This document shows positions 2 through 25,251 of a DNA stretch of 32,000 nucleotides, one piece after another (position 1 is the stretch's first letter; each line of letters starts with the position of its first letter). The stretch is from Candidatus Saccharimonadota bacterium (GTDB taxonomy: Bacteria > Patescibacteriota > Patescibacteriia > 2-12-FULL-60-25). Below the pieces are notes generated by a model, which had not been told where the DNA came from, ran no database searches, and saw only the letters and a program-made list of their open reading frames with translations. Location: NCBI GenBank assembly GCA_963718585.1, contig OY970357.1, positions 540,001-572,000 on the forward strand. The letters are read 5' to 3'. The position numbers and the translations under genes are program-made.

Positions 2-631
2 GTGGTCTCGACGACCACACACAAGACCCTTCGCGGACCGCGCGGCGCCATCATCCTGTCGAAGACCGCGGACCGTCTCGATCCCGAAGGAAAAAAGACG
101 CTCGCACAGAAGATCGACTCTGCGGTCTTTCCGGGTGCGCAGGGCGGACCCTTGGAACACTGCATCGCCGCCAAAGCCGTCGCATTCGAAGAAGCACTGC
201 GCCCCTCATTCAAAACGTATCAACAGAACGTACTGTCGAATTGCCAAGCGCTTGCCGCAACGTTATTGGAGGAAGGTGCACGCCTTGTTTCCGGCGGATC
301 GGATAATCACTTGCTTCTCGTCGACGTGACACCATGGGGCATCGGCGGGAAAGATGCCGAACGGACACTTGAAGAGGTCGGCGTCAGCGTGAACAAGAAC
401 ATGATCCCGTTCGATAGACGGAAACCCATGGATCCATCCGGCATCCGTGTCGGGACGGCAGCGATCACGACACGCGGCTTCGACGATCGATCGACGCGCG
501 AGGTCGGCCATCTGATCGCTCATGTCCTCAGATCCCCGACGGACGAGGTCAAGACCAAGACGGCGGCACGGATCCGGGAGATCGCGAACGCGCACTCCAT
601 CTACCCAGGTCTCGCCAAATTGAGCGGATGA
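2..631 (+). CDS. glyA: Serine hydroxymethyltransferase, C-terminal ~209 aa (5' end lies outside the window)
   Basis: The translation starts VSTTTHKTLRGPRGAIIL, which is the SHMT PLP-lysine motif (T-T-H-K-T-L-x-G-P-R-G). The TGA stop is at 629-631 and a hairpin terminator follows. Confidence 0.95.
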   Translation: MVSTTTHKTLRGPRGAIILSKTADRLDPEGKKTLAQKIDSAVFPGAQGGPLEHCIAAKAVAFEEALRPSFKTYQQNVLSNCQALAATLLEEGARLVSGGSDNHLLLVDVTPWGIGGKDAERTLEEVGVSVNKNMIPFDRRKPMDPSGIRVGTAAITTRGFDDRSTREVGHLIAHVLRSPTDEVKTKTAARIREIANAHSIYPGLAKLSG

Positions 632-657
632 AAAAAGAGCGCCTCGGGCGCTCTTTA
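632..657. terminator. Rho-independent terminator hairpin, bidirectional in form
   Basis: AAAGAGCGCC-tcg-GGCGCTCTTT at 634-656. An A-run lies on one side and a T-run on the other, so it could terminate glyA (+) and a minus-strand transcript. Confidence 0.8.
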
Positions 658-688
658 GAAGATAGAAGATTTGAGACACAGGGACCGG

Positions 689-714
689 CCCGCGGAGGTG
701 ATCGCGGGATTTTT
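689..714 (+). terminator. Second plus-strand hairpin with T-run
   Basis: CCCGCG-gaggtgat-CGCGGG followed by ATTTTT. Confidence 0.5.
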
Positions 715-987
715 CACGGATGAGGGCGTCCGCGCCGGAGGTGAGGTCCGCCACACCTTCAGGACGCGCAGCACGCTGCATCGTCCTGCCCAGGCCTCTT
801 CGGCACCAAACGTCTCGCGTGGGGGGTGATACGCGAGGCTGACGGCACCACGGACCTTTCGGTCTGACACGTTCCCTTACTGACGGGAATAAAGCTGGGG
901 GAGGGCTCTCCTTCCCATCAACGCGGAAAACCGCACGGAAGCAGCGGCCGTGTCGGACCGAACATAAGTCTGTGAGGTACGAGGAAA

Positions 988-1017
988 ACGATACGTCGAA
1001 CAAAGCCCGCTTGTCAA
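988..1017 (-). promoter_or_regulatory. Candidate sigma70-type promoter directly downstream of the 1024-1049 terminator
   Basis: On the minus strand: TTGACA (1017-1012), an 18-nt spacer, then TATCGT (993-988). Confidence 0.4.
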
Positions 1018-1023
1018 GATATT

Positions 1024-1049
1024 AAAGAAAGGGACGGCAGAGCCGTCCC
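1024..1049 (-). terminator. Rho-independent terminator reading on the minus strand
   Basis: On the minus strand: GGGACGG-ctctg-CCGTCCC followed by TTTCTTT. Confidence 0.55.
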
Positions 1050-1905
1050 TTGAGAGGTGGGCAGCGGAGCCGCCCGAGAAAAAGATCGGTTCGGGGAGGA
1101 AGGACCGGGTATGCGCAGAGACCGCGCTTGTTTAAGGCACAGTTTCCTGCACCCCCGGTGGCGAGGCCTGCCTCGCGCCTATGTGGTACCCATGCCTGGG
1201 TTCCACATCCTTCCATCCTCGTGATGTCAACGGTGCGAGATGCACTTCGCGATTCCGCCCGAAAGCGTTCACGCTACTTTTCACACCCGTTTTTCACAGT
1301 GCCAGCAGATGATCCCGAGACCCGGGGTCGACATGCGCCCGCTAAAGCGCCCGTGCAGGACTTCGGTGTTCCTGCAACATCTCTGTCGATGGGTCGGCGC
1401 GTTTCCGCACCTTTCTGCCGATCGGCGGACCTGTGACCGAGGTCCGTCGGATGAGCTGTCCTTTGGACGAGCGCGTACATAGCGCACATCCGTTCGGATC
1501 ACCCCACTGTTCAGACTTCACACAGGCCTGCAAAGGGACACCCCATACGGGATGCATTGACGACGATCCGGATCCTTCGATCCGTCAGACAGTCCATGAC
1601 GCATTCGATCACTTGCGCGACCGTCTGCGAACAGGAAGTGTCCGACCGTACGAGAACCCGTTCATCATCCTTACCCTCTACCGATCGCTCAACCGTTTTG
1701 CATCCATCCGTTACGACGAATGCTTTTTCCCTGACTCGGTTCCTCCTTCGTTGTCCTTGCGGCAACGCTCCGGTCTTCCGTCGCACCTTGCGATGCGGGG
1801 CTGGCCGGATCATCCGAAGACGGTCCGTGGTCGGTCGCAGTTTCCCTTGCGGGTCTCCTGCAACGATCGAGTGACGATGTTCAGCTGTAACGTGCTGGTC
1901 ACTCT

Positions 1906-1934
1906 ATATTTTCAATTTTTTTGAGAAACGTCAA
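1906..1934 (-). promoter_or_regulatory. Candidate sigma70-type promoter facing the ORF-free segment
   Basis: On the minus strand: TTGACG (1934-1929), a 17-nt spacer, then AAATAT (1911-1906). It lies in the only AT-rich patch of the gap. Confidence 0.3.
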
Positions 1935-1942
1935 GGGTGAGA

Positions 1943-1951
1943 GGTGGATAA
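1943..1951 (-). promoter_or_regulatory. DnaA-box-like 9-mer (8/9 match)
   Basis: GGTGGATAA is the reverse complement of TTATCCACC. The consensus is TTATCCACA. Confidence 0.3.
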
Positions 1952-2020
1952 CCCGACACAGATAAAATGCGGCTGAACGATCTGAAAAAAACAACTTCTA
2001 CGACTTACGCATGTCTTGAG

Positions 2021-2029
2021 TTATCCACA
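2021..2029 (+). promoter_or_regulatory. Perfect DnaA-box 9-mer just upstream of the folD start
   Basis: TTATCCACA, in inverted orientation relative to the 1943-1951 site. Confidence 0.35.
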
Positions 2030-2051
2030 AGAATGGCGTATGCTCTTCGCC

Positions 2052-2885
2052 ATGAAACCCATCGACGGCAAAACGATCGCTCTGGATATCCGCACAAAAC
2101 TCAAAGATCGGATCACCCACCTTTCGTATACGCCGAAACTTGGCGTCATCTTGGTCGGCGAGGACGCGCCGTCACATATCTATGTGAACCTCAAAGAGAA
2201 GGCCGCCAAAGAAGCTGGGATCACAACGGACGTTCGTCGTTTCCCAGCCGAGGTGACAGACACGGATCTCATCAAGATCATTGAAGAATGGAATGCGGAC
2301 CCTGAGATGGATGCGATCCTCGTACAGATCCCCCTACCCCCAGGACACGATACGGATGCGATCATCCACGCCATGGATCCAGCGAAGGACGTCGATGGAT
2401 TCCACCCGACGAATGTCACCGCACTAGAAAACGGTGAACCGAACGTGATCCCGCCGGTCCATGAAGCGATCCTCCGTTTGATCGCCGCGACCGACGTCGC
2501 GCCGGATCGAAACGAGATCGTCGTGATCGCGAATAGCGACACGTTCGCCACCCCCCTCGTCCAGCTCTTGAAGACCGCTGGCGGATTCGTTCAACGATCG
2601 ACGCCAGATGATCTCGATACCTCTGCGTTGAGGCACGCGAAGATCATCATCAGCGCCGCCGGCCGTGCCGGACTCATCAATGGCGCTGATCTTTCACCAG
2701 GTGTCTGTCTGATCGACGTCGGGACCAATCGCCTTCCGGACGGAAAAGTGGTCGGAGATGTCGACGTCACCAGCACAAGGGACGTAGATGGATGGATCAC
2801 ACCGGTTCCAGGTGGCGTTGGTCCCATGACCATCGCCATGCTGCTGAAGAACGTGGTCGATCTAGCGGAAAAACGAAGGAAATGA
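2052..2885 (+). CDS. folD: Bifunctional methylenetetrahydrofolate dehydrogenase/cyclohydrolase
   Basis: MKPIDGKTIALDIRTKLKDRI..., VQIPLP, and PGGVGPMTIAMLLKN near the C-terminus. I chose the ATG at 2052 over the upstream in-frame ATG at 2016. Confidence 0.95.
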   Translation: MKPIDGKTIALDIRTKLKDRITHLSYTPKLGVILVGEDAPSHIYVNLKEKAAKEAGITTDVRRFPAEVTDTDLIKIIEEWNADPEMDAILVQIPLPPGHDTDAIIHAMDPAKDVDGFHPTNVTALENGEPNVIPPVHEAILRLIAATDVAPDRNEIVVIANSDTFATPLVQLLKTAGGFVQRSTPDDLDTSALRHAKIIISAAGRAGLINGADLSPGVCLIDVGTNRLPDGKVVGDVDVTSTRDVDGWITPVPGGVGPMTIAMLLKNVVDLAEKRRK

Positions 2886-2912
2886 AAAAACGGGCTTGAT
2901 CCCGTTTTTTTT
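2886..2912 (+). terminator. Rho-independent terminator of folD
   Basis: AAAAAACGGG-cttgat-CCCGTTTTTTTT. Confidence 0.8.
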
Positions 2913-2921
2913 ATCCACCCT

Positions 2922-3395
2922 CTACACGGCGATCCCCTCTCCCGCAGCGGAGTGCATCTTCTTGATCCGAAGGACGCGCGCGACCATGAGGATCGCCGCG
3001 ATCTCCAGCATATATTGCACGATCGTATCGATGTTCGAGAAGAGGATCGGGACCCCGATGATGAACACCTCATAGCTCGCTTCGAACATGAAGGTGATGA
3101 CCATCCAAACGATCAACAAGATGATGACATTCTTTTGTGTCGGATAGCTTGGATGGAGCGCCCAATAGGCGAATCCATACGCCAACGCGGTGGTCATGAT
3201 CCAAATGGGAAAGGAAAGGGCATATCCATGCCACGAATGTGGGACGACATACCCAAGGACGAGCATGATCGCGACCGTATCTGCGACCCACTTGAGAAGC
3301 GAGATCCCGATGAAACGAAACCACATCCCAGCTCCGTCTCCACTCTCTGAGCTATTTTTTTCTTTTTCGAACATGAATGCGAAACCCATTCTCAT
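2922..3395 (-). CDS. Hypothetical small integral membrane protein
   Basis: The translation has several hydrophobic helices (e.g. VADTVAIMLVLGYVV, IILLIVWMVITFMF). It starts 9 nt after the permease stop. An alternative start is M24 at 3326, which is preceded by GGAG. Confidence 0.6.
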   Translation of the reverse strand: MRMGFAFMFEKEKNSSESGDGAGMWFRFIGISLLKWVADTVAIMLVLGYVVPHSWHGYALSFPIWIMTTALAYGFAYWALHPSYPTQKNVIILLIVWMVITFMFEASYEVFIIGVPILFSNIDTIVQYMLEIAAILMVARVLRIKKMHSAAGEGIAV

Positions 3396-3404
3396 AAGTT
3401 GAGA

Positions 3405-4541
3405 TTATCTCACGCTTTCGAGCACCCGTCGAATAAGGATGGCGCCGAATGCGAGAACGGAGAGAGCTGGGGCGATCGACCGCCACCAGATATTGGAAAG
3501 CCGGCGTTTCCTCAACACCCGATGTGCCATGATCGCGATCAAGATCGCATTGAAGCCGGTCACGACACCACCGACGAAGCTGACCGTGTCCAAAAAATTC
3601 CGAGCGGTCACGAACAAGAGGAAAAGCGGAGACCCGAGCGCGATCGCCCACGCCACAGGCTTCGACAGATGCGCGTCCAAATGAAGCATGGCCTTGAGAT
3701 CCTGGATCAAGGTGATGAACGAAGTCGCCACGGCAAGGAAACCGAGCGCCGGTAAGAGCCACGCGAGCATGGGCGGGAACAATGACCCAAGTTGTTCCGG
3801 ACCGGCGTTCGCACCAAGGGCTGCGGCGGCGAACGCACCGAAGAACCAGATCAAGAGCGCCGCGCCCAATGTCCCAAGCGCTACGGCGAGTCGCGTCTCT
3901 CGCTGACGCCGCCCCATGACCGATGCGACCTCCGGGATCACGGCCCATCCGAAGATCGCGAAAAGAAAGACCCCGGCGTTGTCCAAAGCCGGCGTCCAAT
4001 GCGCCGTCACGATCGCGGTGTGCTGAAGATGCGGGACATACAACGCCGTCGCGATGACCAGGAGCACGCCCAATGTCCAGGTCAACGCTGCCTCCACCCG
4101 CGCGACGAACTTCAATCCCACGAAGACCGTTGCCGCACCACCAGCCCAAAAGGCCAATTGCCACCACAGCGCCCCGTCCCCGAACCCGGCCTGCGTCGCA
4201 AGTTGATTCAAGAATTCTCCGCCAAGGATCAAATACGCCAGACAGGCGCCGATGATCTGTGCCGGGTGTGAAAGATACGCGATGCGACGGCCCCAAGGGC
4301 CAAGAGACGCTCCGGCCTGTGCCGGCAGGCGATGGGATGCGGCAGAGGTATTCGCGAGGATGATGTCCGCATACAAGAGGTGGATCACGAGGATCGCGAG
4401 CGCCGCGATCCAAAAGGCGACCGTTCCTGCGGCGACGCCGGTCTGGCTCATCGCCGCTGGGAGCGCGAACGTCCCGGCACCGATGATCGTTCCGAGCATG
4501 AGCAGTGTCGCGCGGGAAAAGGCTTTTGGATCGGCTTTCAT
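3405..4541 (-). CDS. Amino-acid permease (Trp/Tyr-permease / AAAP-like fold)
   Basis: Polytopic membrane protein of 378 aa. The N-terminal LGTIIGAGTFALPAAM resembles the GxIIGAGM(F/L)xLP motif of aromatic amino-acid permeases. Confidence 0.75.
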   Translation of the reverse strand: MKADPKAFSRATLLMLGTIIGAGTFALPAAMSQTGVAAGTVAFWIAALAILVIHLLYADIILANTSAASHRLPAQAGASLGPWGRRIAYLSHPAQIIGACLAYLILGGEFLNQLATQAGFGDGALWWQLAFWAGGAATVFVGLKFVARVEAALTWTLGVLLVIATALYVPHLQHTAIVTAHWTPALDNAGVFLFAIFGWAVIPEVASVMGRRQRETRLAVALGTLGAALLIWFFGAFAAAALGANAGPEQLGSLFPPMLAWLLPALGFLAVATSFITLIQDLKAMLHLDAHLSKPVAWAIALGSPLFLLFVTARNFLDTVSFVGGVVTGFNAILIAIMAHRVLRKRRLSNIWWRSIAPALSVLAFGAILIRRVLESVR

Positions 4542-4635: not shown

Positions 4636-6108
4636 ATGGCGAACGTGGAACGCATCCCCCCACAGAGCGTCGAGGCGGAACAATCGCTCCTCGGCTCACT
4701 CTTACTTGATAAGGACGCCATGATCCGCGTCTCCGACCAGATAACGGCGGAGGACTTTTACGCGGACAAACACCGTGAGATCTACGAGGCGATGCTTGAT
4801 CTGTTCCGTCGACACGAACCGATCGACATCCTCTCACTCTCGAATCGTTTACAGGAGAAAGGCGAGCTTGAATCCCTCGGGGGCCGCGCATACCTCATTC
4901 AACTGTCGAATGCCGTCCCAACGGCAAGCCACGTGGTCCATTATGGGACCATCGTCCATAAGAAGGCGACCCTGCGCCGTCTCATCCGCGCATCCGGTGA
5001 GATCACGGCAATGGGTTTTGATGAAGAAAAGGACATCGACATCGTCCTCGACAATGCGGAACAAAAACTCTTCAACGTCTCACAAAAATTCCTCAAGACC
5101 GCATTCACGCCGATCCAGAACATCCTGGACTCCGCATTCGAACGCATCGACGAGCTCCATAAGGAAAAAGGGAAGATGCGCGGTGTCCCGACCGGATACA
5201 CCGATCTCGACAGCCTGCTCGGCGGACTGCAGAAGAGCGACCTTCTCATCCTTGCGGCCCGACCATCCTGCGGAAAGACAGCGCTTGCGCTCGACATCGC
5301 GCGCCATGTCGCAGTCAAGAGCAAGGTCGGCGTCGGGATCTTCTCGCTGGAAATGTCCAAAGAACAGCTCGTCGATCGCATGTTGTGCGCCGAAGCCAAT
5401 GTGAACCTCTGGAGCATGCGCACCGGGCACTTGACCGACCAAGGAGCGAACGACGACTTTTCACGCATCGGCCACGCACTTGGCACCCTTTCCGAAGCCC
5501 CGATCTTCATCGACGACTCCGCGTCTGCCACGATCATGGAGATCCGTGCAAAGGCACGACGCCTCCAGATGGAGAAAGGGCTCGGTCTGCTCATCGTCGA
5601 CTATCTTCAACTCATGGAATCGCGCACAGGCAAGATCGACAACCGCGTGCAGGAGATCGCCGAGATCACGCGCGGACTCAAACAGATCGCGCGCGAATTG
5701 AACATCCCGGTCCTTGCCCTTTCTCAGCTCTCTCGCGCGGTGGAGCAGCAAAAGCCCGCGATCCCCAAACTCGCTCATCTGCGCGAATCTGGTTCCATTG
5801 AGCAGGATGCGGATATCGTGATGTTCATCTATCGCAAAGCTGCGGATCGAAATTACCGGAAAGAAGACCTCTCCCCGGATGAGCTCCACACGGCAGAGGT
5901 CCATATCGCCAAACATCGCAACGGTCCGACCGGGACGGTGTATCTGTACTTCGACGACTCGCGTGCGAACTTCAAGAATCTCGCGAAACGATCACAAGGA
6001 AACGCGCCGGCCCTCGCGCCCGCGGCCCAGTCCGCCGCCCCGGGCCTTCCGCCCGGCCTTGATCCGAACACTCCGATCGAAACGACCAAACCGCCGGGTC
6101 AGGCATGA
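4636..6108 (+). CDS. dnaB: Replicative DNA helicase DnaB
   Basis: PPQSVEAEQSLLGSLLLD at the N-terminus, Walker A ARPSCGKTALAL, IVDYLQLM and SQLSRAVEQ. The start is MANVERIPP at 4636. A ~40-aa Pro/Ala-rich C-terminal tail follows the helicase core. Confidence 0.95.
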   Translation: MANVERIPPQSVEAEQSLLGSLLLDKDAMIRVSDQITAEDFYADKHREIYEAMLDLFRRHEPIDILSLSNRLQEKGELESLGGRAYLIQLSNAVPTASHVVHYGTIVHKKATLRRLIRASGEITAMGFDEEKDIDIVLDNAEQKLFNVSQKFLKTAFTPIQNILDSAFERIDELHKEKGKMRGVPTGYTDLDSLLGGLQKSDLLILAARPSCGKTALALDIARHVAVKSKVGVGIFSLEMSKEQLVDRMLCAEANVNLWSMRTGHLTDQGANDDFSRIGHALGTLSEAPIFIDDSASATIMEIRAKARRLQMEKGLGLLIVDYLQLMESRTGKIDNRVQEIAEITRGLKQIARELNIPVLALSQLSRAVEQQKPAIPKLAHLRESGSIEQDADIVMFIYRKAADRNYRKEDLSPDELHTAEVHIAKHRNGPTGTVYLYFDDSRANFKNLAKRSQGNAPALAPAAQSAAPGLPPGLDPNTPIETTKPPGQA

Positions 6109-6171: not shown

Positions 6172-7869
6172 TCAGTCCGATGCGATGTGCTTTTTCGATC
6201 TGTAGAGCGAATCTTCCGATCCGACGAAGGAGAGCGGAAACGGTTTTCCGCTTTGAATGGCAAGGACGTTCGCCTTCTCGCCGTCGAGATCCTTTGCGTG
6301 CGGGAACTTCCGCTTCCATCTGCCGATCTCTTTCAGAGCGAGATCCGCATGACCTGAGAGCGCGAGCGCGAGGAAATACTGCCGACGCGAGGCATGCCAT
6401 TTCGGTTTGGCGTAGGCGAGCTCCTGAAAATACGGGACCGCGTCAGCCGCCAACCCATGCAACAACATCCAGCTGCCGATGCAGTTATCCACAGCGATCC
6501 GCTTGGTCGGCATGATCGCGGCGTACGCGACACAGTTCGGAAACGCCTCATCGAGCTTGCCCATGCCTAGACTCTGCTCGATCCGCCGATGCAACGTTAT
6601 GGGATCACGGGGTTGAAGGAGCGCGTCGCACTCCGAAAGCGTCTCCATATCCTGATAACAGAACGCGCGTCCGCGCGCGATCGGAGCCATCGCAAGCGCG
6701 GCCAAGAACGGCGTCGCACCTACGATCGCCCGTACGCTCCGCGTCCGAAGACGCTGAGCGACCCACGGCGTTGCCTGTTCGGCAAGCGCGGCGAAGACGA
6801 AGGTAAAACCGATCAAGGTCTCGTACGCGTACCGGTTGCTGATCCCAAGAAGGATCGTGACGAGATACAGCGGAAGCGCGATCGATGCCAGGACCGTCGC
6901 GCCGCCCGCCACAGCGAGGACCCGAAGTCGCGGCGCATGGCGCACGCAAGCGACACATGCAGCGAGGAGAAACATCAGAACGATCGCGCCGAGAATGCCA
7001 TGCAGGACGTTCCCGTGAAGGATCGAGCGATCCGAAGCGACGTCCGTGGGCAAAAAGACGTCTTTCAATAATCGCCATCCGGACGGCGCCATGATGTGGA
7101 ACGTCTTGGCGGTCACGAGCTTGCCGAAAGGGATCCGCCAGATGTGAAACGCATGACGAAGAATGAGATCCACCCCGATCGCCATCGCCGCACCCACGCC
7201 CGCGGATGCGATCCGCGGACGGATCGGCGTCTGTCCTTCCTTCGGCGCCGCGGCAAACACCACGAACAGCACCGCAGACGCCGCGAAGAACTCGCGGCTG
7301 AACATCGAGAAGAGCACCGCGACGAATGTCACGATCGCGATCGGGATGCGTCGGACGATCCGGGGCAGGACCATCAATCCGGCAAGGACGATGATCCACC
7401 CAAGCAGGTCCTGACGACCGCCCAGATAATCCACGTTCTCCGCGGTGACCGGATGGACTGTGAACAGCACGGTGACCGCGATCGCGATCGACCGTCGGAC
7501 GCCGTAACGGCAGAGGGTCTCTGCGAGGAGGATCGCGACCAACAGGTGCATCGCGATGCTCACTGCATGGAGCGGGACCGTATGCGCCCCGAACAGATGC
7601 CAGGTCAGCCAATAGCTGAAACTCGACAGTGGTCGGTAGTACGAGCTCTCGAACGGCTGAGGCGTCAATGCGAACAAACTGTGCGTCAACAGTCCCTTGA
7701 GAGACCCGCCATGCTGAATGTATGCGTTGTGCAGGATCAGCCGATCATCATCTTGCGTAAATCCGCTTTGCAAGGAAGCGCTGTGTGCAACAAGGGTGGC
7801 GACACAGATCGGAAGCCACCACGTATACGCGATCACGGCCTCCCGATGTCGTGTAAACCATTCCTTCAT
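6172..7869 (-). CDS. Polytopic GT-C-type (TMTC/PMT-like) glycosyltransferase with C-terminal TPR repeats
   Basis: The first loop motif FTQDDDRLILHN resembles the DD/DE motif of GT-C enzymes. There are many TM helices, and the C-terminal ~180 aa is TPR-like. The start is MKEWFTRH at 7869, preceded by GGAGGAAGA. Confidence 0.65.
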   Translation of the reverse strand: MKEWFTRHREAVIAYTWWLPICVATLVAHSASLQSGFTQDDDRLILHNAYIQHGGSLKGLLTHSLFALTPQPFESSYYRPLSSFSYWLTWHLFGAHTVPLHAVSIAMHLLVAILLAETLCRYGVRRSIAIAVTVLFTVHPVTAENVDYLGGRQDLLGWIIVLAGLMVLPRIVRRIPIAIVTFVAVLFSMFSREFFAASAVLFVVFAAAPKEGQTPIRPRIASAGVGAAMAIGVDLILRHAFHIWRIPFGKLVTAKTFHIMAPSGWRLLKDVFLPTDVASDRSILHGNVLHGILGAIVLMFLLAACVACVRHAPRLRVLAVAGGATVLASIALPLYLVTILLGISNRYAYETLIGFTFVFAALAEQATPWVAQRLRTRSVRAIVGATPFLAALAMAPIARGRAFCYQDMETLSECDALLQPRDPITLHRRIEQSLGMGKLDEAFPNCVAYAAIMPTKRIAVDNCIGSWMLLHGLAADAVPYFQELAYAKPKWHASRRQYFLALALSGHADLALKEIGRWKRKFPHAKDLDGEKANVLAIQSGKPFPLSFVGSEDSLYRSKKHIASD

Positions 7870-8377: not shown

Positions 8378-8998
8378 ATGGCGATACCCAAACCCATCCA
8401 CGATGCCGCGGCGGCCTTTGACCGCCTGCCCGGGGTCGGCCCACGGGCGGCATTGCGATATGCGTATTGGCTCGCCGCCCAACCAAAAGAAGAGCTTCGA
8501 AGATTCGCGCGTGCACTTGAAGCTGTTGCGGACGGGATCACGCGATGCGAGATCTGCGGGACATGGACCGACCCGGATGGCTGTACCATCTGCACAGACC
8601 CCCGACGAAAGCCCGACCAGCTCTGTGTCGTCGCATCAAGTCAGGACGTCCGCGTGATCGAAGAATCCGGCGCATTCTCCGGGCGTTTCCATGTCCTCGG
8701 CGGATTGATCGACCCGGTGGAGGGCCGGACGCCGGAAACCCTGAACATCGCGTCCCTCTTCCGGCGTATCGCAGACGCGGACGGATCGATCCGTGAGATC
8801 ATCTTTGCTTTCGATCCCGACGTCTCCGGAGACATGACGGCACTGTATCTCGCAAAACGCCTCGCGACTTCCCCAGTCACGATCACACGACTGGCGCGCG
8901 GGCTGCAAAACGGGGCTCAGATCGAATATGCGGACGGCGCGACCATCGCCGACGCGCTCAAGAATCGAAAGGACCTTGATTCCCCATCAGATCCTTGA
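8378..8998 (+). CDS. recR: Recombination protein RecR
   Basis: The HhH motif RLPGVGPRAALRYAYWL, the C4 zinc finger CEICGTWTDPDGCTIC, and a Toprim region. Confidence 0.95.
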   Translation: MAIPKPIHDAAAAFDRLPGVGPRAALRYAYWLAAQPKEELRRFARALEAVADGITRCEICGTWTDPDGCTICTDPRRKPDQLCVVASSQDVRVIEESGAFSGRFHVLGGLIDPVEGRTPETLNIASLFRRIADADGSIREIIFAFDPDVSGDMTALYLAKRLATSPVTITRLARGLQNGAQIEYADGATIADALKNRKDLDSPSDP

Positions 8999-9058
8999 CA
9001 TCGGTCGTATCGCAAGGTACCGGTACAGGTGTTCTTCGCCCCTTGCAAAGGAGGTCTC

Positions 9059-9439
9059 GTGGAAAAAACCTATCGAAAAAATGTCTGCACTGCCTGCGGA
9101 TCACCCGTGAACAAGCAGGGGAAATGCATCATGCCGGGCTGTCACGGCCATTCAGACCCCTCCATCCATCCCGGACCGCTCCCGTCGCTCAAGACCGTGG
9201 CGTATCCGCCGGATATGAAACTCCCATCGTCCACCGAGCCCCCACCTGTGGACGATGCGGAAGATGACGCACCGGATCTCCTGGTCGCTGAACTCCCTCC
9301 GGATGAAAGCGACCAGCTCGAGATCGACGTTGCCCTTGAGAATCTCGAAGAAGATCACCTTCTTCCCCCGTCCCAAAAGGACGCACAGGCCGCAGAGCCA
9401 GCCCCCTCCTCACCCCTCTCCACAAAGGAGGAAGATTGA
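9059..9439 (+). CDS. Zinc-ribbon protein with a disordered Pro/acid-rich tail (orphan)
   Basis: CTACGSPVNKQGKCIMPGC. A GTG start at 9059 is preceded by AAAGGAGG (9047-9054). The ORF track starts at GTG 9029. Confidence 0.55.
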   Translation: MEKTYRKNVCTACGSPVNKQGKCIMPGCHGHSDPSIHPGPLPSLKTVAYPPDMKLPSSTEPPPVDDAEDDAPDLLVAELPPDESDQLEIDVALENLEEDHLLPPSQKDAQAAEPAPSSPLSTKEED

Positions 9440-9465
9440 CCGCCTCTCATGGCGGTCTTTGTTTT
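9438..9465 (+). terminator. Rho-independent terminator
   Basis: GACCGCC-tctcat-GGCGGTC followed by TTTGTTTT. Confidence 0.7.
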
Positions 9466-9585
9466 GCCTACCGTAACGTTTCCCCCATCCCTGCGTATGA
9501 TACAATTATTCCTATCACCGCCTCTTGACAGAGACGTTCTGATAGGCTTCGTTTTTTCGTATCGCACATTCACCAAGGAGGTGCC

Positions 9586-10023
9586 GTGATCGATCCAAAG
9601 ATCTGTCCGCGATGCAGGGCCCCGGTCCGTCCGGATGGGTCATGCATCCGTGCCGCGTGTCGAAAAGACGCGCGCGTAAGTCAGCTCCCGACCATCCAGG
9701 CACCCCCAGAGTATCTGGAAGGCACGAGCGCGTCGGAGGGAACGCATCCATCCGAACTGATCGAATGTGCACGGTGCGGTTCGCGGATCGCACCGCTCGG
9801 CCGAACCTGTCCGGAATGCGGGACTGAACGAAAGGAAACGGAACCACCGTCGCCCTACGACGTCATCCGGTCCGGGATCCCGATGCCGAACGTCCCTTCG
9901 ATCCCTGCTCCACGGTCCTCACGACGGATCAAAAAGCCTCAGACCTCGACCATGTACCGGATCGTTGATCCGGGGATCGTGGAGAACATCCATATTCCCG
10001 CGAAAAAAAGCGGTTCTCACTAA
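9586..10023 (+). CDS. Double zinc-ribbon protein (orphan), paralogous at its N-terminus to the upstream gene
   Basis: CPRCRAPVRPDGSCIRAAC plus CARCGSRIAPLGRTCPECG. The GTG start is preceded by AAGGAGG (9575-9581). Confidence 0.6.
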   Translation: MIDPKICPRCRAPVRPDGSCIRAACRKDARVSQLPTIQAPPEYLEGTSASEGTHPSELIECARCGSRIAPLGRTCPECGTERKETEPPSPYDVIRSGIPMPNVPSIPAPRSSRRIKKPQTSTMYRIVDPGIVENIHIPAKKSGSH

Positions 10024-10055
10024 AACGCCCCCGATGTTCGGGGGCGTTCTTCTTT
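10024..10055. terminator. Bidirectional terminator between convergent genes
   Basis: AACGCCCCCGA-tgt-TCGGGGGCGTT followed by CTTCTTT. Confidence 0.75.
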
Positions 10056-10063
10056 GGTCTTGA

Positions 10064-10372
10064 TTAGGCCAATTTGGTGATCTTGACCTTGGTGAACGGC
10101 TGACGATGGCCAACACGGCGGCGGTACTTGGACTTGGCCTTGTATTTGACCACATCCACCTTCTTTCCCATCCCGTGGGCAACGATCTCACCCGAGACCT
10201 TGGCGGAAAGCATCGGCGTTCCGACGTCCACTTTCGAGCCGTCCTCCTCGGCGGTCAGCAACACGTCGAACGAGACGGGCTTCCCCACCTCCGTGTCCAG
10301 CTTTTCGACGGTCAGGACATCCCCTTCTTTCACGAGGTACTGCTTTCCCCCGGTCTTGATGACGGCAAACAT
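10064..10372 (-). CDS. rplU: 50S ribosomal protein L21
   Basis: MFAVIKTGGKQYLVKEGDVLTVEKL...; 102 aa. Confidence 0.95.
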   Translation of the reverse strand: MFAVIKTGGKQYLVKEGDVLTVEKLDTEVGKPVSFDVLLTAEEDGSKVDVGTPMLSAKVSGEIVAHGMGKKVDVVKYKAKSKYRRRVGHRQPFTKVKITKLA

Positions 10373-10422
10373 AGTGCGAAGAGGATACTCGAAACCACCC
10401 CCTGTGTCAAATCCCGCCGACC

Positions 10423-11127
10423 CTAGAGATACCCGAAGGGATTAGGGTTACTGACGCCATTCTTGTTCCCGACCCGGATAGCAACATCGCGCATCTTCGT
10501 GGCCGCCTCCTTCGCCTTCCTCATGAGTTCATGCGTCGCCTCAACATCCACGCCTTCTGCCCGCATCTGCTCCCTGATGCGATCCTTCTCGTGCTCGAGA
10601 CCGTCTTCGAGGAGTTTCACCATCTTCGTGAAATCGACGCCTCTCCATCCGGGGTATGTCTCTTGGCCCTGCTTCGGATCTCGTGCCCATTCTTGAAAAG
10701 CCCTCAATATTTCTTGATACTCGCGTCTTTGTTCTGAATCGACTAACTGATCCAAGGCACACGCCCTGACCGTTGGGAGGTAATACCCATCATATATTGC
10801 TTGCAACCCTTCCTTCGAAAGGTCTGTCCTATCTACCGATTTCGCCAACTTCGTTTGTGTGTTTCGTTCTTCGACATAGCCTGCCGCCCCTTCCTTTTCT
10901 GCTTGCTGCTGTATGCGTTCAAACGCGTCAACCTCAACGAACGTGGCATACGGTTCTTCATCAGCAGATTTCACCAACAGACCGTCATATTTTGCCCGCA
11001 GATCGGTCACCGCGCTCCACGGACTTCGGAGATCATGTCGGGTGAAAAAAGATCTCCCTGCGGCGAACGCTTCAACCATTTCCTTGGCTTTGTCAGAGAT
11101 CGCATGCTCCTGCTCTTTTCGTGGCAT
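10423..11127 (-). CDS. Hypothetical protein (234 aa, Glu/Lys/Asp-rich, no TM helix)
   Basis: A long clean ORF in an operon-like position 50 nt upstream of rplU. Local GC is visibly lower (about 47-50% in the lines I hand-counted). I recognise no family. Confidence 0.6.
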   Translation of the reverse strand: MPRKEQEHAISDKAKEMVEAFAAGRSFFTRHDLRSPWSAVTDLRAKYDGLLVKSADEEPYATFVEVDAFERIQQQAEKEGAAGYVEERNTQTKLAKSVDRTDLSKEGLQAIYDGYYLPTVRACALDQLVDSEQRREYQEILRAFQEWARDPKQGQETYPGWRGVDFTKMVKLLEDGLEHEKDRIREQMRAEGVDVEATHELMRKAKEAATKMRDVAIRVGNKNGVSNPNPFGYL

Positions 11128-21911: not shown

Positions 21912-24478
21912 CATTTGAAATAGCGTTTCAAGAACTGGCCCGTCACGCTCTTCGCGTTCCCCGCGATCTTCTCCGGCGTTCCTTCGGCCACGACCTTCCC
22001 GCCCTTGTCGCCGCCTTCCGGCCCCATGTCGATGATCCAATCGGCGTTCTTGATCACATCGAGATTATGCTCGATGACGACCACGGTATTTCCGCGCGCG
22101 ACGAGCTTTTGCAGGACCTCCAGCAATTTTCGGACATCTTCAAAGTGCAGTCCGGTGGTCGGCTCATCAAGAAGATAGAACGTATTCCCTGTATCGCGCC
22201 GCGCCAACTCGGTCGCAAGCTTCACGCGCTGCGCTTCACCGCCTGAAAGCGTCGTGGCCGCCTGACCGAGCGTGATATATCCAAGCCCCACTTCTTTCAG
22301 GATCTGCGTCCGATCATGGATCGGCGGAATGTCTTTGAAGAATTCATTCGCCTCTTCCACGGTCATCCCCAAAATATCCGAGATGTTCTTGCCGCGGTAC
22401 TTCACCTCCAATGTCTCGCGATCGAAACGCTTGCCTTTACAGACGTCGCAGGCCACATACACGGTCGGGAGAAAATGCATCTCGATCGCGATCTTCCCGT
22501 GCCCTTCACAATTCTCGCATCGTCCGCCCGGGACATTGAAAGAGAATCGTCCGCGCTTATACCCACGCATGCGCGCTTCCGCCGTGAGCGTGAAGAGCTC
22601 GCGGACATGATCCCAGATCCCGGTATAGGTCGCCGGATTGGACCGCGGCGTCCGTCCGATCGGCGACTGATCCACATCCACGATCTTATCCACCCATCCC
22701 ACGCCTTCGATCGCTTCATGCGCTCCGACCTTCACCGTCGATCCGTTCAATTCCCGCGCCATCGCGCGATACAGCACATCGATGAGAAGCGTGGACTTGC
22801 CGGAGCCGGAAACGCCGGTGATGCAGACGAAACGTTTGAGCGGGATCTTCACGGTCACGTTCTTCAGATTGTTCTCCGCCGCCTTGCGGACCGTCAGGAA
22901 TTGCTTGGCTGGAGGTCGCGGCCGCGACATCGGGATCTGCTTGTCTCCCCGGAGATACGCACAGGTGACCGAATTTGTATCCTTCAGGATCTCCGGCATG
23001 GGGCCTGCGGCAACGACCTCTCCGCCATGTACCCCTGCGCCCGGCCCGATATCCACGAGATAATCAGAGGATGCGATCGTGTCCTCGTCATGCTCCACGA
23101 CGATGATGCTATTGCCCAAGTCCCGCAATTTTTCCAGCGTCTCGATGAGCTTGGCGTTATCGCGCTGATGGAGGCCGATGGTCGGTTCGTCGAGCACATA
23201 CAATGCACCGACAAGGTGTGATCCGATCTGCGATGCGAGACGGATACGCTGAGCTTCACCGCCGGACAAAGATCCGGCGATCCGATTCAGGGTCAGATAG
23301 TGCAGACCGACATCCATAAGGAATTGGAGCCGCCCGAGGATCTCTTTCATCACCGGCGCGGCGATCTTCGCTTCCGTCTCGGAAAGTTTCAGCTTCTCAA
23401 AGAAGGCCAACGCGACATCGATGGTCATGTTCGATACGTCGACGATGTTCTTATCGTTCAACTTCACGTACAGCGCTTCGCCGCGCAAACGCGCCCCATT
23501 GCACGCCGGACAGATCTCATCCGAATAGATCTCCGTCGTCCCGATCCCGTTGCACGCCGGACACGCCCCATAAGGAGAGTTGAAAGAAAACAACCGCGGC
23601 TCGATCTCCGGGAACGCAAAATTATGCGCCGGACAGGAAAACCGCGACGACATGGTCTGCTCACTCCCATCGTCCAGGATGGCGACGATCGTATCTTCAC
23701 CGCGATCCAACCCGATCTCAATGGCTTCCGCGATGCGCTGGCGCAGACGCGCGTTCCCCTCGATGGGCCACGCAAGCGGGACCCGGTCGATCACCACCTC
23801 GATCGTATGCTGTTTGTAGCGCGAGAGGTTCACGCGCTCGCGGAGTGACTGCCACTTCCCGTCGAGACGGACCTCCAAAAATCCGGATTGATATAGGTCC
23901 TGCAACAGCTGGTGATACTCCCCTTTCCGCCCGCGGACGACCGGGGCCAGGATCACGATCTCATCCTTGGAGATCACGGTGACGTTCTTTGCCCGCGGCT
24001 TTTTGCGCGCTTCCTCGATCGTTTTCGCATCCGCATGGATGTCACGCGTGCGTTTGAGGATCACGTCCACCATCTCCTCGACCGTCATCTTTCGGATCGG
24101 CTCGCCGCCGATCGGACAAAACGGATGACCGGCACGCGCATACAGCACGCGCATGTAATCGTAGATCTCGGTGATCGTCGCGACGGTCGAACGCGGATTC
24201 GAGCTGTGCGCCTTCTGATCGATGGAAATGGCCGGCGACAGTCCTTCGATCTCATCCACGTCTGGCTTGTCCATTTGTCCGAGGAATTGCCGCGCATAGG
24301 CGGACAAAGATTCGACGTATCGACGCTGTCCCTCGGCGAAGATCGTATCAAATGCCAAACTCGACTTGCCGGAACCCGACATGCCCGTAAAGACGACCAG
24401 TTTATCGCGCGGGATCTCCAATGAGATGTTCTTAAGATTGTGCTCGCGCGCGCCTTTGATGATGATCTTGTCTTGCAT
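21911..24478 (-). CDS. uvrA: Excinuclease ABC subunit A (855 aa, lacks the insertion domain)
   Basis: [17 protein letters not shown], two ABC modules ([18 protein letters not shown], and LSGGEAQR twice). The start ATG is at 24478. Confidence 0.97.
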
Positions 24479-24605
24479 GGATAGGAAAATATCCCTCGGA
24501 GGCGCACATAGGGGTGCGGTCAAGGGTTTTGCAGAGCATACCCGACCCTTCTTACCCTGTCGAGATGATGGGGATGGACAATACGTTCGGACCTCCCATC
24601 AAATC

Positions 24606-24630
24606 AAAAACCGGACAAAGCCCGGTTTTC
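24606..24630 (-). terminator. Weak hairpin with U-run after the tRNA
   Basis: On the minus strand: CCGG-gctttgt-CCGG followed by TTTTT. Confidence 0.4.
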
Positions 24631-24634
24631 GATA

Positions 24635-24722
24635 TGGCGGAGAGGGAGGGATTCGAACCCTCGATACCTTTCGGTATGCTTGCTTTCCAAGCAAGTGCAC
24701 TAGACCACTATGCGACCTCTCC
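24635..24722 (-). tRNA. tRNA-Ser: tRNA-Ser, anticodon GGA, class II (long variable arm), CCA encoded
   Basis: Reverse complement: GGAGAGG tc GCAT agtggtcta GTGC a CTTGC ttGGAaa GCAAG c ATACC gaaa GGTAT c GAGGG ttcgaat CCCTC CCTCTCC g CCA. Confidence 0.95.
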
Positions 24723-24883
24723 GTACTCGCCTAAACGAGCCTCACTTTGTTCGGCCTTGAAGGCCTTACTTCATGTCGCTCGTTGGCTATGTTTTGCTTC
24801 GCTTCGTTCCGCGAGGGGGAGCGATGCGTATGCGCGTTTTCTTCACATTCTTCGTACCAAAGAACCTGAAAAATTGTGCCGGA

Positions 24884-24912
24884 ATCATAGCGGAATGACT
24901 GAGTTTATTCAA
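24884..24912 (-). promoter_or_regulatory. Candidate sigma70-type promoter ~155 nt upstream of the tRNA
   Basis: On the minus strand: TTGAAT (24912-24907), a 17-nt spacer, then TATGAT (24889-24884). Confidence 0.3.
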
Positions 24913-24951
24913 GGGCTGGGCTGTGCTATGGTTCAAAAGAACCCCCTCTGT

Positions 24952-25251
24952 ATGTCCAAAAACCCCTTTCTCAACGCCGGAGCCGCCGCGGTCTACATCG
25001 TCGCGATCGCGAGCCTTATGCAGTTCCTGACGAAGTTCGCTCCACCGAAGGACTCGCTCCTCGCCCCGATCGCGGTCCTCTCCCTCTTCACCCTTTCCGC
25101 GGGCGTCATGGGATATCTCTTTCTTAGCGAACCGATCCAGATGTATCTGGCGAATGAAAAGAAGAAGGCCGTTTCCCTCTTTGTCCAAACCCTCTTCGTC
25201 TTTGCCGGCATCACGGCCGCCGCGATCGTCCTCCTCTTCGTCCGGATCTGA
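24952..25251 (+). CDS. Hypothetical small membrane protein (99 aa, 3 predicted helices)
   Basis: Only the hydrophobic C-terminal part of ORF 24514..25251 is credible, because the upstream part overlaps the tRNA. An alternative start is at 24928. Confidence 0.5.
   Translation: MSKNPFLNAGAAAVYIVAIASLMQFLTKFAPPKDSLLAPIAVLSLFTLSAGVMGYLFLSEPIQMYLANEKKKAVSLFVQTLFVFAGITAAAIVLLFVRI

Follow-up and report, generated by a model that had tools for sequence, protein, structure and literature searches.

A large, highly structured non-coding RNA very probably encoded between glyA and folD in a Patescibacteria-like small-genome clade

Bacteria of the candidate phyla radiation (CPR) have tiny genomes with very little non-coding DNA, and a long stretch between two housekeeping genes in which no gene can be recognised therefore raises the question of what it encodes. 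The stretch considered here lies between glyA and folD in a window of 32,000 nucleotides (the whole stretch of DNA that was analysed, positions 540,001 to 572,000 of contig OY970357.1, assembly GCA_963718585.1) from a Candidatus Saccharimonadota bacterium. An initial annotation, made from the sequence alone, had proposed that this gap carries a large structured RNA on the minus strand. Based on the comparison with related loci, our answer is that positions 1021-1951 of the window (minus strand) very probably hold a stand-alone gene for a highly structured non-coding RNA (ncRNA) of ~0.88 kb, which belongs to an undescribed family in a CPR/Patescibacteria-like small-genome clade.

The window opens within glyA, whose stop codon lies at position 631, and folD starts at 2040 according to the database call (or at 2052, the second ATG), leaving a gap of ~1.41 kb. 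With 23 confident window genes as training set, a codon-usage model gives negative log-odds in all six frames from ~600 to 2040, compared with +5 to +35 for the flanking genes, and positions 571-2130 form the longest low-coding run of the window; the unusual size attributed to this gap by the initial annotation is thus confirmed. The open reading frames (ORFs) found in it are all short and overlap one another (two of them, of 128 aa and 163 aa, overlap by 4 nt), the ten longest have no match in Pfam, and a query concatenating the six-frame translations of the gap found no relative among 5.8 billion proteins. Since this negative result extends to all called ORFs of the source genome, no gene has been called in the gap by anyone, and the earlier view that it holds no credible coding sequence stands.

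What the gap does contain, read on the strand opposite to that of glyA and folD, is a set of elements that together have the organization of an independent gene:

1943-1951, minus strand: DnaA-box-like element TTATCCACC, 8 nt upstream of the -35 hexamer
1906-1934, minus strand: predicted promoter of the large RNA (-35 TTGACG at 1934-1929, 17-nt spacer, -10 AAATAT at 1911-1906)
1021-1899, minus strand: candidate gene for a large structured ncRNA, ~879 nt, ORF-free, with a 5' end at ~1899 predicted from the -10
1021-1051, minus strand: intrinsic terminator of the large RNA, a 10-bp stem (1051-1029) followed by a U-run, found by a terminator scan

Is this organization peculiar to one genome? The family now comprises 11 distinct members, namely the window and 10 homologues (0.82-1.16 kb) in metagenomic contigs and contigs of metagenome-assembled genomes, and in 10 of the 11 the element sits between glyA and folD. 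In the remaining one (locus L005) it adjoins the ornithine carbamoyltransferase gene, and the RNA is kept without glyA nearby and with another gene between itself and folD. When the window gap was compared with the first syntenic loci (by blastn and tblastx), only the start of folD aligned; the homology of the gaps was seen once more loci were included. In particular, the gaps of L005, L086 and L087 share 61-69% nucleotide identity over ~1.2 kb, three members (L091, L128 and L153) joined through a scan of metagenomes for the promoter pattern, and two others (L174 and L175) were retrieved by FolD synteny alone and were recognised afterwards by the RNA models described below. The contexts of the FolD homologues share the order glyA - gap - folD - small protein - permease - dnaB, and in most of these loci the gap measures 1.0-1.9 kb and either has no called gene or carries hypothetical ORFs, whose strand and frame vary from locus to locus. 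The FolD protein of the window has, beyond an identical copy, a next-best relative of 60% identity, and its nearest named relatives come from Candidatus Uhrbacteria, Magasanikbacteria and Kerfeldbacteria, which makes a CPR/Patescibacteria bacterium the probable source; scanning the genome collection with this single protein found no relative, and scanning it with a FolD alignment returned, among the matches listed, unrelated FolD proteins of at most 45% identity. Two of the loci have gaps with additional features: in L172 the 1.66-kb gap (1837-3500) is not homologous to the RNA family and contains an internal direct repeat of ~330 nt (~60% identity) and two called ORFs without Pfam match, and in L174 an extra ORF-free stretch of ~525 nt (2698-3222) lies between the RNA promoter and folD.

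No described RNA family accounts for the locus. Rfam 15 (4227 models, including those for GOLLD, ROOL, OLE, HEARO, raiA, RNase P, the group I and II introns and the ZTP and tetrahydrofolate (THF) riboswitches) gave no match in the gap at the gathering threshold, the one match in the window being a tRNA-Ser located elsewhere, and relaxing the threshold to E values of up to 10 brought only chance-level matches of at most 19 bits. The same search of L001, L003 and L005 and of the L087 element, which extends the Rfam comparison that the initial annotation had suggested, had the same outcome.

The multiple alignment of the members has, at one end and on the minus strand, a conserved block that reads TTATCCAC(A)-N-CTTGACG. 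The TTATCCAC element is invariant in 11 of 11 members, at a fixed distance from the -35, and the -35 hexamer TTGACG is itself invariant in all of them, followed at 17-18 nt by a -10 that has the form TAnnnT in the members other than the window. At the other end lies, in every member and at a corresponding position, a GC-rich hairpin with a U-run after it. With a conserved promoter block at one end and a terminator at the other, the conserved unit consists of a promoter of the sigma-70 type, an RNA of 0.82-1.16 kb and a terminator, and in the window it spans 931 nt, box and terminator included (1951 to 1021). A strict promoter scan did not call the 1934-1906 site because of its weak -10, and positions 1929-1951 (minus strand) are the only site of the window with the full pattern of box, 8 nt and TTGACG. 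The minus-strand promoter and terminator signals listed by the initial annotation were all found where it had placed them.

The evidence on the body of the RNA comes mainly from an alignment of five well-alignable members (alignment A4, 72% column identity), for which the RNAalifold consensus contains 305 pairs in 53 helices, with standard pairs in 89.9% of the cells. Double-sided changes were seen in 68 of these pairs, compared with 31.2±3.8 in shuffled alignments (none of 500 reaches the observed number) and with 14-18 when the pairing partners are slid by 1-3 columns. An AlifoldZ-type test, in which columns were shuffled within gap-pattern and conservation classes, gave for four segments consensus-energy z values of -7.9, -10.9, -8.1 and -3.8 on the transcript strand and of -3.9, -6.2, -5.5 and -1.1 on the reverse complement, and this stronger signal on the transcript strand indicates that the structure belongs to the minus-strand RNA. 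The ~53 helices of the long members are closed by long-range helices and are mostly capped by GNRA or UNCG tetraloops: these two classes make up 36 of the 56 four-base hairpin loops (64%; 26 GNRA and 10 UNCG), and loop variants, even of different classes, replace each other at the same position. For the 879-nt RNA of the window itself, the minimum free energy (MFE) is -395 kcal/mol, compared with -343±6.8 kcal/mol for dinucleotide shuffles (z = -7.7).

The same alignments bear on the proposal that the gap contains one or more decayed or fast-evolving protein genes, the RNA structure being incidental. Hypothetical proteins without Pfam match have indeed been called over the homologous stretch in four members (192 aa in L003, 206 aa in L086, 296 aa in L087 and 82 aa in L175), and the two window ORFs of 128 and 163 aa with their 4-nt overlap could be read in the same way. 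Nevertheless, the called ORFs differ in strand and frame among the members and none of them is conserved; the substitutions have no codon periodicity (0.593, 0.576 and 0.572 over the codon positions), and tblastx between homologues gives similar scores in all six frames, which is a signature of non-coding conservation. These observations, added to the negative codon log-odds in every frame and to the lack of any homologue in the 5.8 billion proteins, together with compensatory changes and a strand-asymmetric fold energy that are unexpected for coding sequence, largely refute the proposal, which we consider scarcely credible. The calls in question (L003 5426-6004, L086 4200-4820, L087 4960-5850 and L175 2725-2973), differing as they do in strand and frame, are probably spurious annotations. 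A small conserved ORF inside the RNA was also considered and rejected, as no ORF is kept among the members compared and the codon positions change evenly. Protein remnants, which according to the initial annotation would have spoken against an RNA, were not found in the gap by the protein searches described above, and the conservation and covariation that it had asked for in relatives are both present.

In order to see which parts of the RNA are shared by all members, covariance models were built for its domains, which are placed in the window as follows:

1080-1214, minus strand: conserved 3' domain (covariance model R1)
1161-1176, minus strand: hairpin GCGAGG-CAGG-CCUCGC, with an exact 14-mer common to L005, L086 and L088
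1521-1531, minus strand: junction motif GCAGGCCUGUG, within which CAGGCCUG is an 8-nt palindrome
1513-1688, minus strand: candidate central domain, with the closing helix GUAGAGGG/CCCUUUGC around 136 nt and then the junction motif (placed with model R2)
1690-1899, minus strand: lineage-variable 5' domain, with GCAA-capped hairpins at 1751-1766, 1783-1796 and 1844-1853

The R1 model, built from 7 members with the window left out, has a single match in the 32-kb window, at 1080-1214 on the minus strand and over the full model length (36.4 bits, E 4.9e-6), and it matches L175 similarly (34 bits). In a 10-member model-based alignment of this 3' domain, 19 of the 30 pairs are compensatory, compared with 9.3±1.9 in shuffled alignments (0/500), and the outer stem of the GCGAGG-CAGG-CCUCGC hairpin covaries (GAC/GUC, GGC/GCC and GGU/ACC). 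The sequence AGG(C/A/U)CUG is near-invariant in all members, and both core motifs of the family, the AGGCCUGUG junction and the hairpin, are present in the window. The R2 model, made from the central domain of the long members, finds L003, L174 and L175; in the window its match, obtained with filters off, is weak (5.3 bits, E 0.1) and aligns just the closing helix and the junction motif. These two elements are also found in L003, L088 and L091 with a very different domain size, L088 and L091 retaining them around a short hairpin that takes the place of the central domain. The R3 model (a 5' sub-domain derived from group A) finds L174 and has no match in the window, L088, L091, L003 or L175, and the feature it describes consequently defines a subgroup and not the family. 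Taken together, the three models resolve a conserved core (3' domain, junction motif and hairpin) and a variable periphery, in which the predicted 5' and central domains differ among members and can shrink to a single hairpin, and they show the window copy to be short and divergent. The three GCAA-capped hairpins stressed by the initial annotation are present, also in the MFE fold, although they fall in the lineage-variable 5' domain, outside this core.

The ~0.86-kb minus-strand transcript foreseen by the initial annotation corresponds to this same unit, which is now backed by a -35, an upstream TTATCCAC box and a terminator kept in position at 10 other loci, by a covariation-supported body whose signal is stronger on the minus strand and by a 3' domain that a model built without the window finds in it. 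As far as comparative sequence evidence goes, it is now clear that the element is an independent, predicted transcription unit, giving a long RNA that has been under selection for elaborate secondary structure.

A further relation concerns the two core motifs themselves. Between the junction motif and the 3' hairpin there is a 7-bp complementarity in all ten distinct sequences (70 of 70 cells paired); four of its seven pairs vary, two of them with double changes in L003, a result equalled by 7 of 500 shuffles. The alignment used here (A8, 1521-1531 with 1161-1176) contains two mutually exclusive pairings, each compensated in one sequence (the local one in L091 and the junction-hairpin one in L003), and these could correspond to a pseudoknot, a switch or an intermolecular contact. 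As CAGGCCUG is palindromic, the contact could also join separate molecules. We regard a tertiary or intermolecular junction-hairpin contact as suggested, at most, by these counts.

The box upstream of the -35 raises the question of how the RNA gene would be controlled, and whether the element might act as DNA in the first place. In 10 of the 11 members the box reads TTATCCACA, the exact consensus of a DnaA box. In DnaA-regulated promoters such as those of dnaA, nrdAB and mioC in E. coli, a DnaA box lies next to the -35, and the TTATCCACA immediately upstream of the -35 in these members is similar; here, in contrast, the product is an ncRNA, the box is putative and the same arrangement precedes unrelated genes. 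An invariant box beside the -35 makes DnaA-dependent control plausible, and transcription of the RNA would then be coupled to DnaA. The complete pattern (TTATCCACA-N7-CTTGACG-N17/18-TANNNT) occurs in at least 80 metagenome loci (L089-L168), with 6 family members among the matches listed. Some of the unrelated loci precede LexA-like, RpoB, HisG or metal-transport genes, and in others (L107, L131/L126/L142, L094/L124, L161 and L156) over 700 nt downstream of the pattern contain neither a sizeable ORF nor an Rfam match. The idea that this promoter marks a regulon of similar RNAs was rejected, as the other listed loci have ordinary ORFs or nothing recognisable downstream.

If the locus were instead a DNA-level replication element near dnaB (an origin or a DnaA-titrating site), the boxes would be its functional part. 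Exact or near-exact matches are found at 1943-1951, 2021-2029 and 2911-2919, the window contains 11 matches compared with 3.5 expected, and the family box is invariant. Each unit, however, has a single conserved box, proximal to the promoter; the body is 55-62% GC and lacks an AT-rich unwinding element; GC skew keeps its sign at the element in the window and in six other loci; the covariation is RNA-like and strand-asymmetric; and no dnaA or dnaN gene is nearby. We therefore hold such an element to be hardly tenable, and a chromosomal origin (oriC) in particular was rejected because of the one conserved box, the GC-rich body and the lack of a skew flip in 7 loci. As for the boxes of the window in general, the 11 matches to TTATCCACA (with at most 1 mismatch, and including a further one at 6485-6493) are not reached by any of 100 shuffles; three of them flank folD, and no GC-skew flip accompanies the matches.

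The position between two genes of one-carbon metabolism invites another reading, in which the element is a cis-regulator of folD or glyA that works as a leader, as an antisense RNA or through transcriptional interference. The glyA-folD position is kept in 10 of the 11 members, and the RNA promoter stands back to back with the folD promoter, at ~150 nt, with a DnaA box of the window in the spacer of the latter. However, the RNA is transcribed away from folD and has its own terminator before glyA, which leaves both mRNAs free of overlap; the riboswitch models, ZTP and THF among them, do not match it; in L005 the RNA persists although glyA is not nearby and another gene stands before folD; the glyA-folD arrangement is the same in relatives that lack the RNA; and a covarying structure of ~1 kb far exceeds the needs of promoter interference. 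In our judgement a cis-regulator is improbable. Concerning folD itself, the gene appears leaderless. The conserved ATG (2052 in the window) is preceded, at 7-8 nt, by the end of a -10-like hexamer, which reads TATGCT in both the window and L001 and TATCAT in L003, and a -35 (TTGAGT or TTGCCA) stands 17 nt before it (window 2015-2054, L001 5975-6015, L003 5985-6003). This predicted promoter includes the start given by the database (2040), and its DNA is 77% identical between the window and L001, the remaining gap being unalignable.

A further reading takes the RNA for a selfish or mobile element, which could be a group I or II intron lacking an ORF, the RNA of a retroelement, or an RNA derived from a prophage or satellite, as are many copies of GOLLD and ROOL. 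Its distribution is patchy among close relatives, L005 carries it at a different site, and its size and ornateness resemble those of phage-associated large RNAs. On the other side, no intron or other Rfam model matches even at lenient thresholds, there are no repeats or flanking duplications and just a single copy in the window, and no integrase, reverse transcriptase or phage gene is nearby. Site and orientation remain stable even where FolD has diverged to 55-60% identity with the window protein, and the RNA has its own promoter and terminator and does not lie inside a host gene. Among viral contigs, the 17-mer motif has 8 matches, which is the chance level, and none of the 8 fits R1. A mobile origin is, in view of all this, very unlikely.

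The reading of the locus as a stand-alone gene of a new RNA family has to be weighed with several observations that count against it. The closest FolD relatives (L001, L169 and L170) have gaps of ~400 nt without the RNA, which must then be dispensable in some lineages; the members known are 11, and most of the covariation over the full length, measured with shuffle controls that ignore phylogeny, comes from five of them. In the window, no confident alignment is possible for the 5' and central domains, given the low R2 score and the complete lack of an R3 match. The pairing of the two core motifs and the upper part of the local hairpin stem, itself compensated in L091, compete for bases. The ends of the transcript, as well as its stability, are read from predicted signals, and the TTATCCACA-N7-CTTGACG pattern also precedes ordinary genes in ~70 other metagenome loci, so that the promoter pattern is not specific evidence for the RNA. 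With these points taken into account, we maintain that a stand-alone structured RNA is very probably what the gap encodes.

The short gaps of the relatives lacking the RNA (L001 5593-6000, L169 3069-3500 and L170 2847-3221, ~400 nt each between glyA and folD) have features of their own. In L001 there is a minus-oriented terminator next to glyA, preceded by a pyrimidine-rich tail, and positions 5648-5755 (minus strand) give a very weak R1 match (E 0.81). This stretch may be what is left of the RNA, or a reduced form of it.

Between the large RNA and glyA, the window contains a second structured stretch, for which the initial annotation had proposed a separate transcript of 0.33 kb (988 to 632):

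628-985, minus strand: second structured stretch, a candidate RNA of ~350 nt, with the C-rich hairpin loops CCCUCCCCC and CACCCCCC
988-1017, minus strand: promoter-like TTGACA-18-TATCGT, 10 of 12 consensus positions, upstream of the second stretch
632-657, both strands: bidirectional terminator hairpin, serving glyA (plus) and the candidate second RNA (minus), with the longer U-run on the minus strand

The consensus signals of this proposal were recovered, its perfect 7-bp stems (760-766/782-788 and 814-820/831-837) are exact complements, and the fold z for the single sequence 628-985 is -5.7 on the minus strand compared with -2.8 on the plus strand. On the other hand, the stretch has no homologue in any fetched locus, the other members having just 70-170 nt from the RNA terminator to glyA, and, the whole stretch being peculiar to the window, the 988-1017 site has no conserved counterpart elsewhere. 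The two C-rich loops (805-922, minus strand) resemble the anti-Shine-Dalgarno seed loops of some small RNAs (sRNAs). As in the alpha-proteobacterial ar14 and other C-rich-loop sRNAs, the loops of this second stretch could pair with Shine-Dalgarno sequences; the resemblance is loose, and the stretch is not a member of ar14, whose Rfam model gives a non-significant 17.7 bits (gathering score 58.8, E 1.4). From its signals and fold, the region may be a second, lineage-specific small RNA.

Two other statements of the initial annotation concern the wider window. It had described the remaining intergenic distances as tight, which is true in part: positions 8851-10200 also have a low coding score, though with two small ORFs. 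One of these (9029-9439) has no Pfam match and the other (9586-10023) has a weak, sub-threshold zinc-ribbon match; the region matches neither the RNA models of the family nor Rfam. It had also pointed to a scarcity of GATC in the gap, and the sequence GATC is indeed absent between 700 and 1084; the window average is one per 64 nt and not one per 50 nt as had been stated. With 502 sites in the window compared with 117 expected from base composition (4.3 times that figure) and 336 from dinucleotides, the longest GATC-free runs are 24464-25005 (the tRNA region), 10184-10581 and 700-1084. The scarcity in the gap follows non-coding sequence and adds nothing beyond the non-coding status.

To which known RNAs, then, does the new family come closest, and what might it do? 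In kind, it is closest to the orphan ornate RNAs GOLLD, ROOL and OLE, while being unrelated to them in sequence. These are large ornate bacterial ncRNAs that have been studied by cryo-electron microscopy (PMC12286853). Like them, the new RNA is a stand-alone, long, multi-domain molecule with many covarying helices and GNRA loops, it has a narrow phylogenetic range and a gene context that reveals no function, and it has palindromic conserved motifs with a potential for self-association. Where those RNAs form homo-oligomers, the sole hint in the new family is the palindrome CAGGCCUG, with its complementarity to the 3' hairpin, which may point in that direction. Unlike them, it has no sequence or structure match to the three families, is chromosomal at a fixed housekeeping locus and not phage-associated, lacks a conserved partner-protein gene such as oapA, and occurs in CPR-like small genomes. 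It is also longer than GOLLD, ROOL and OLE, which we take to measure ~0.6-0.8 kb. With RNase P RNA and the other universal structured RNAs, namely transfer-messenger RNA (tmRNA), the signal recognition particle (SRP) RNA and 6S RNA, it shares an independent gene with its own promoter and terminator, a conserved core and a variable periphery that can be reduced to a hairpin, and GNRA/UNCG swaps. It differs from these RNAs in having no match to their Rfam models and in being two to three times longer; additionally, its absence from the closest relatives means that it is not universal.

The RNA is antisense to both of its neighbours, has its own terminator and has no same-strand gene downstream, which are points in favour of an action in trans. 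We infer that it would be made as a discrete, stable transcript and would act in trans as a folded molecule, as a protein scaffold or as an RNA-only assembly, rather than regulating its neighbours in cis. The two invariant AGGCC-containing motifs would pair with each other, in an intramolecular pseudoknot or between molecules. Among the possible roles, that of a scaffold, a ribonucleoprotein (RNP) or an RNA-only assembly is a serious candidate, short of being favoured; local regulation is considerably less likely, and a catalytic role slightly less likely still. A bolder version, in which the family is a new giant ornate RNA class specific to CPR/Patescibacteria, working as a ribozyme or as a self-assembling RNA or RNP via its palindromic AGGCC motifs and with its synthesis tied to DnaA, seems doubtful to us at present.

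In the full-text papers searched, no RNA of this kind is described from CPR bacteria. To our knowledge, large folded bacterial RNAs outside translation are rare, and each of them (RNase P, group II introns, OLE, GOLLD and ROOL) has exposed unexpected biochemistry or architecture. If the present reading is true, the new RNA, with up to ~1.16 kb, is among the longest structured non-ribosomal RNAs of bacteria. The family is presently hidden, since gene callers either leave the locus empty or put spurious hypothetical ORFs there; the alignments and covariance models make the RNA open to experiment, and the results could correct the annotation of these genomes. For the organisms themselves, a single conserved structured RNA with its own promoter takes up ~0.1% of a 1-Mb genome, an outlay that suggests an important role.

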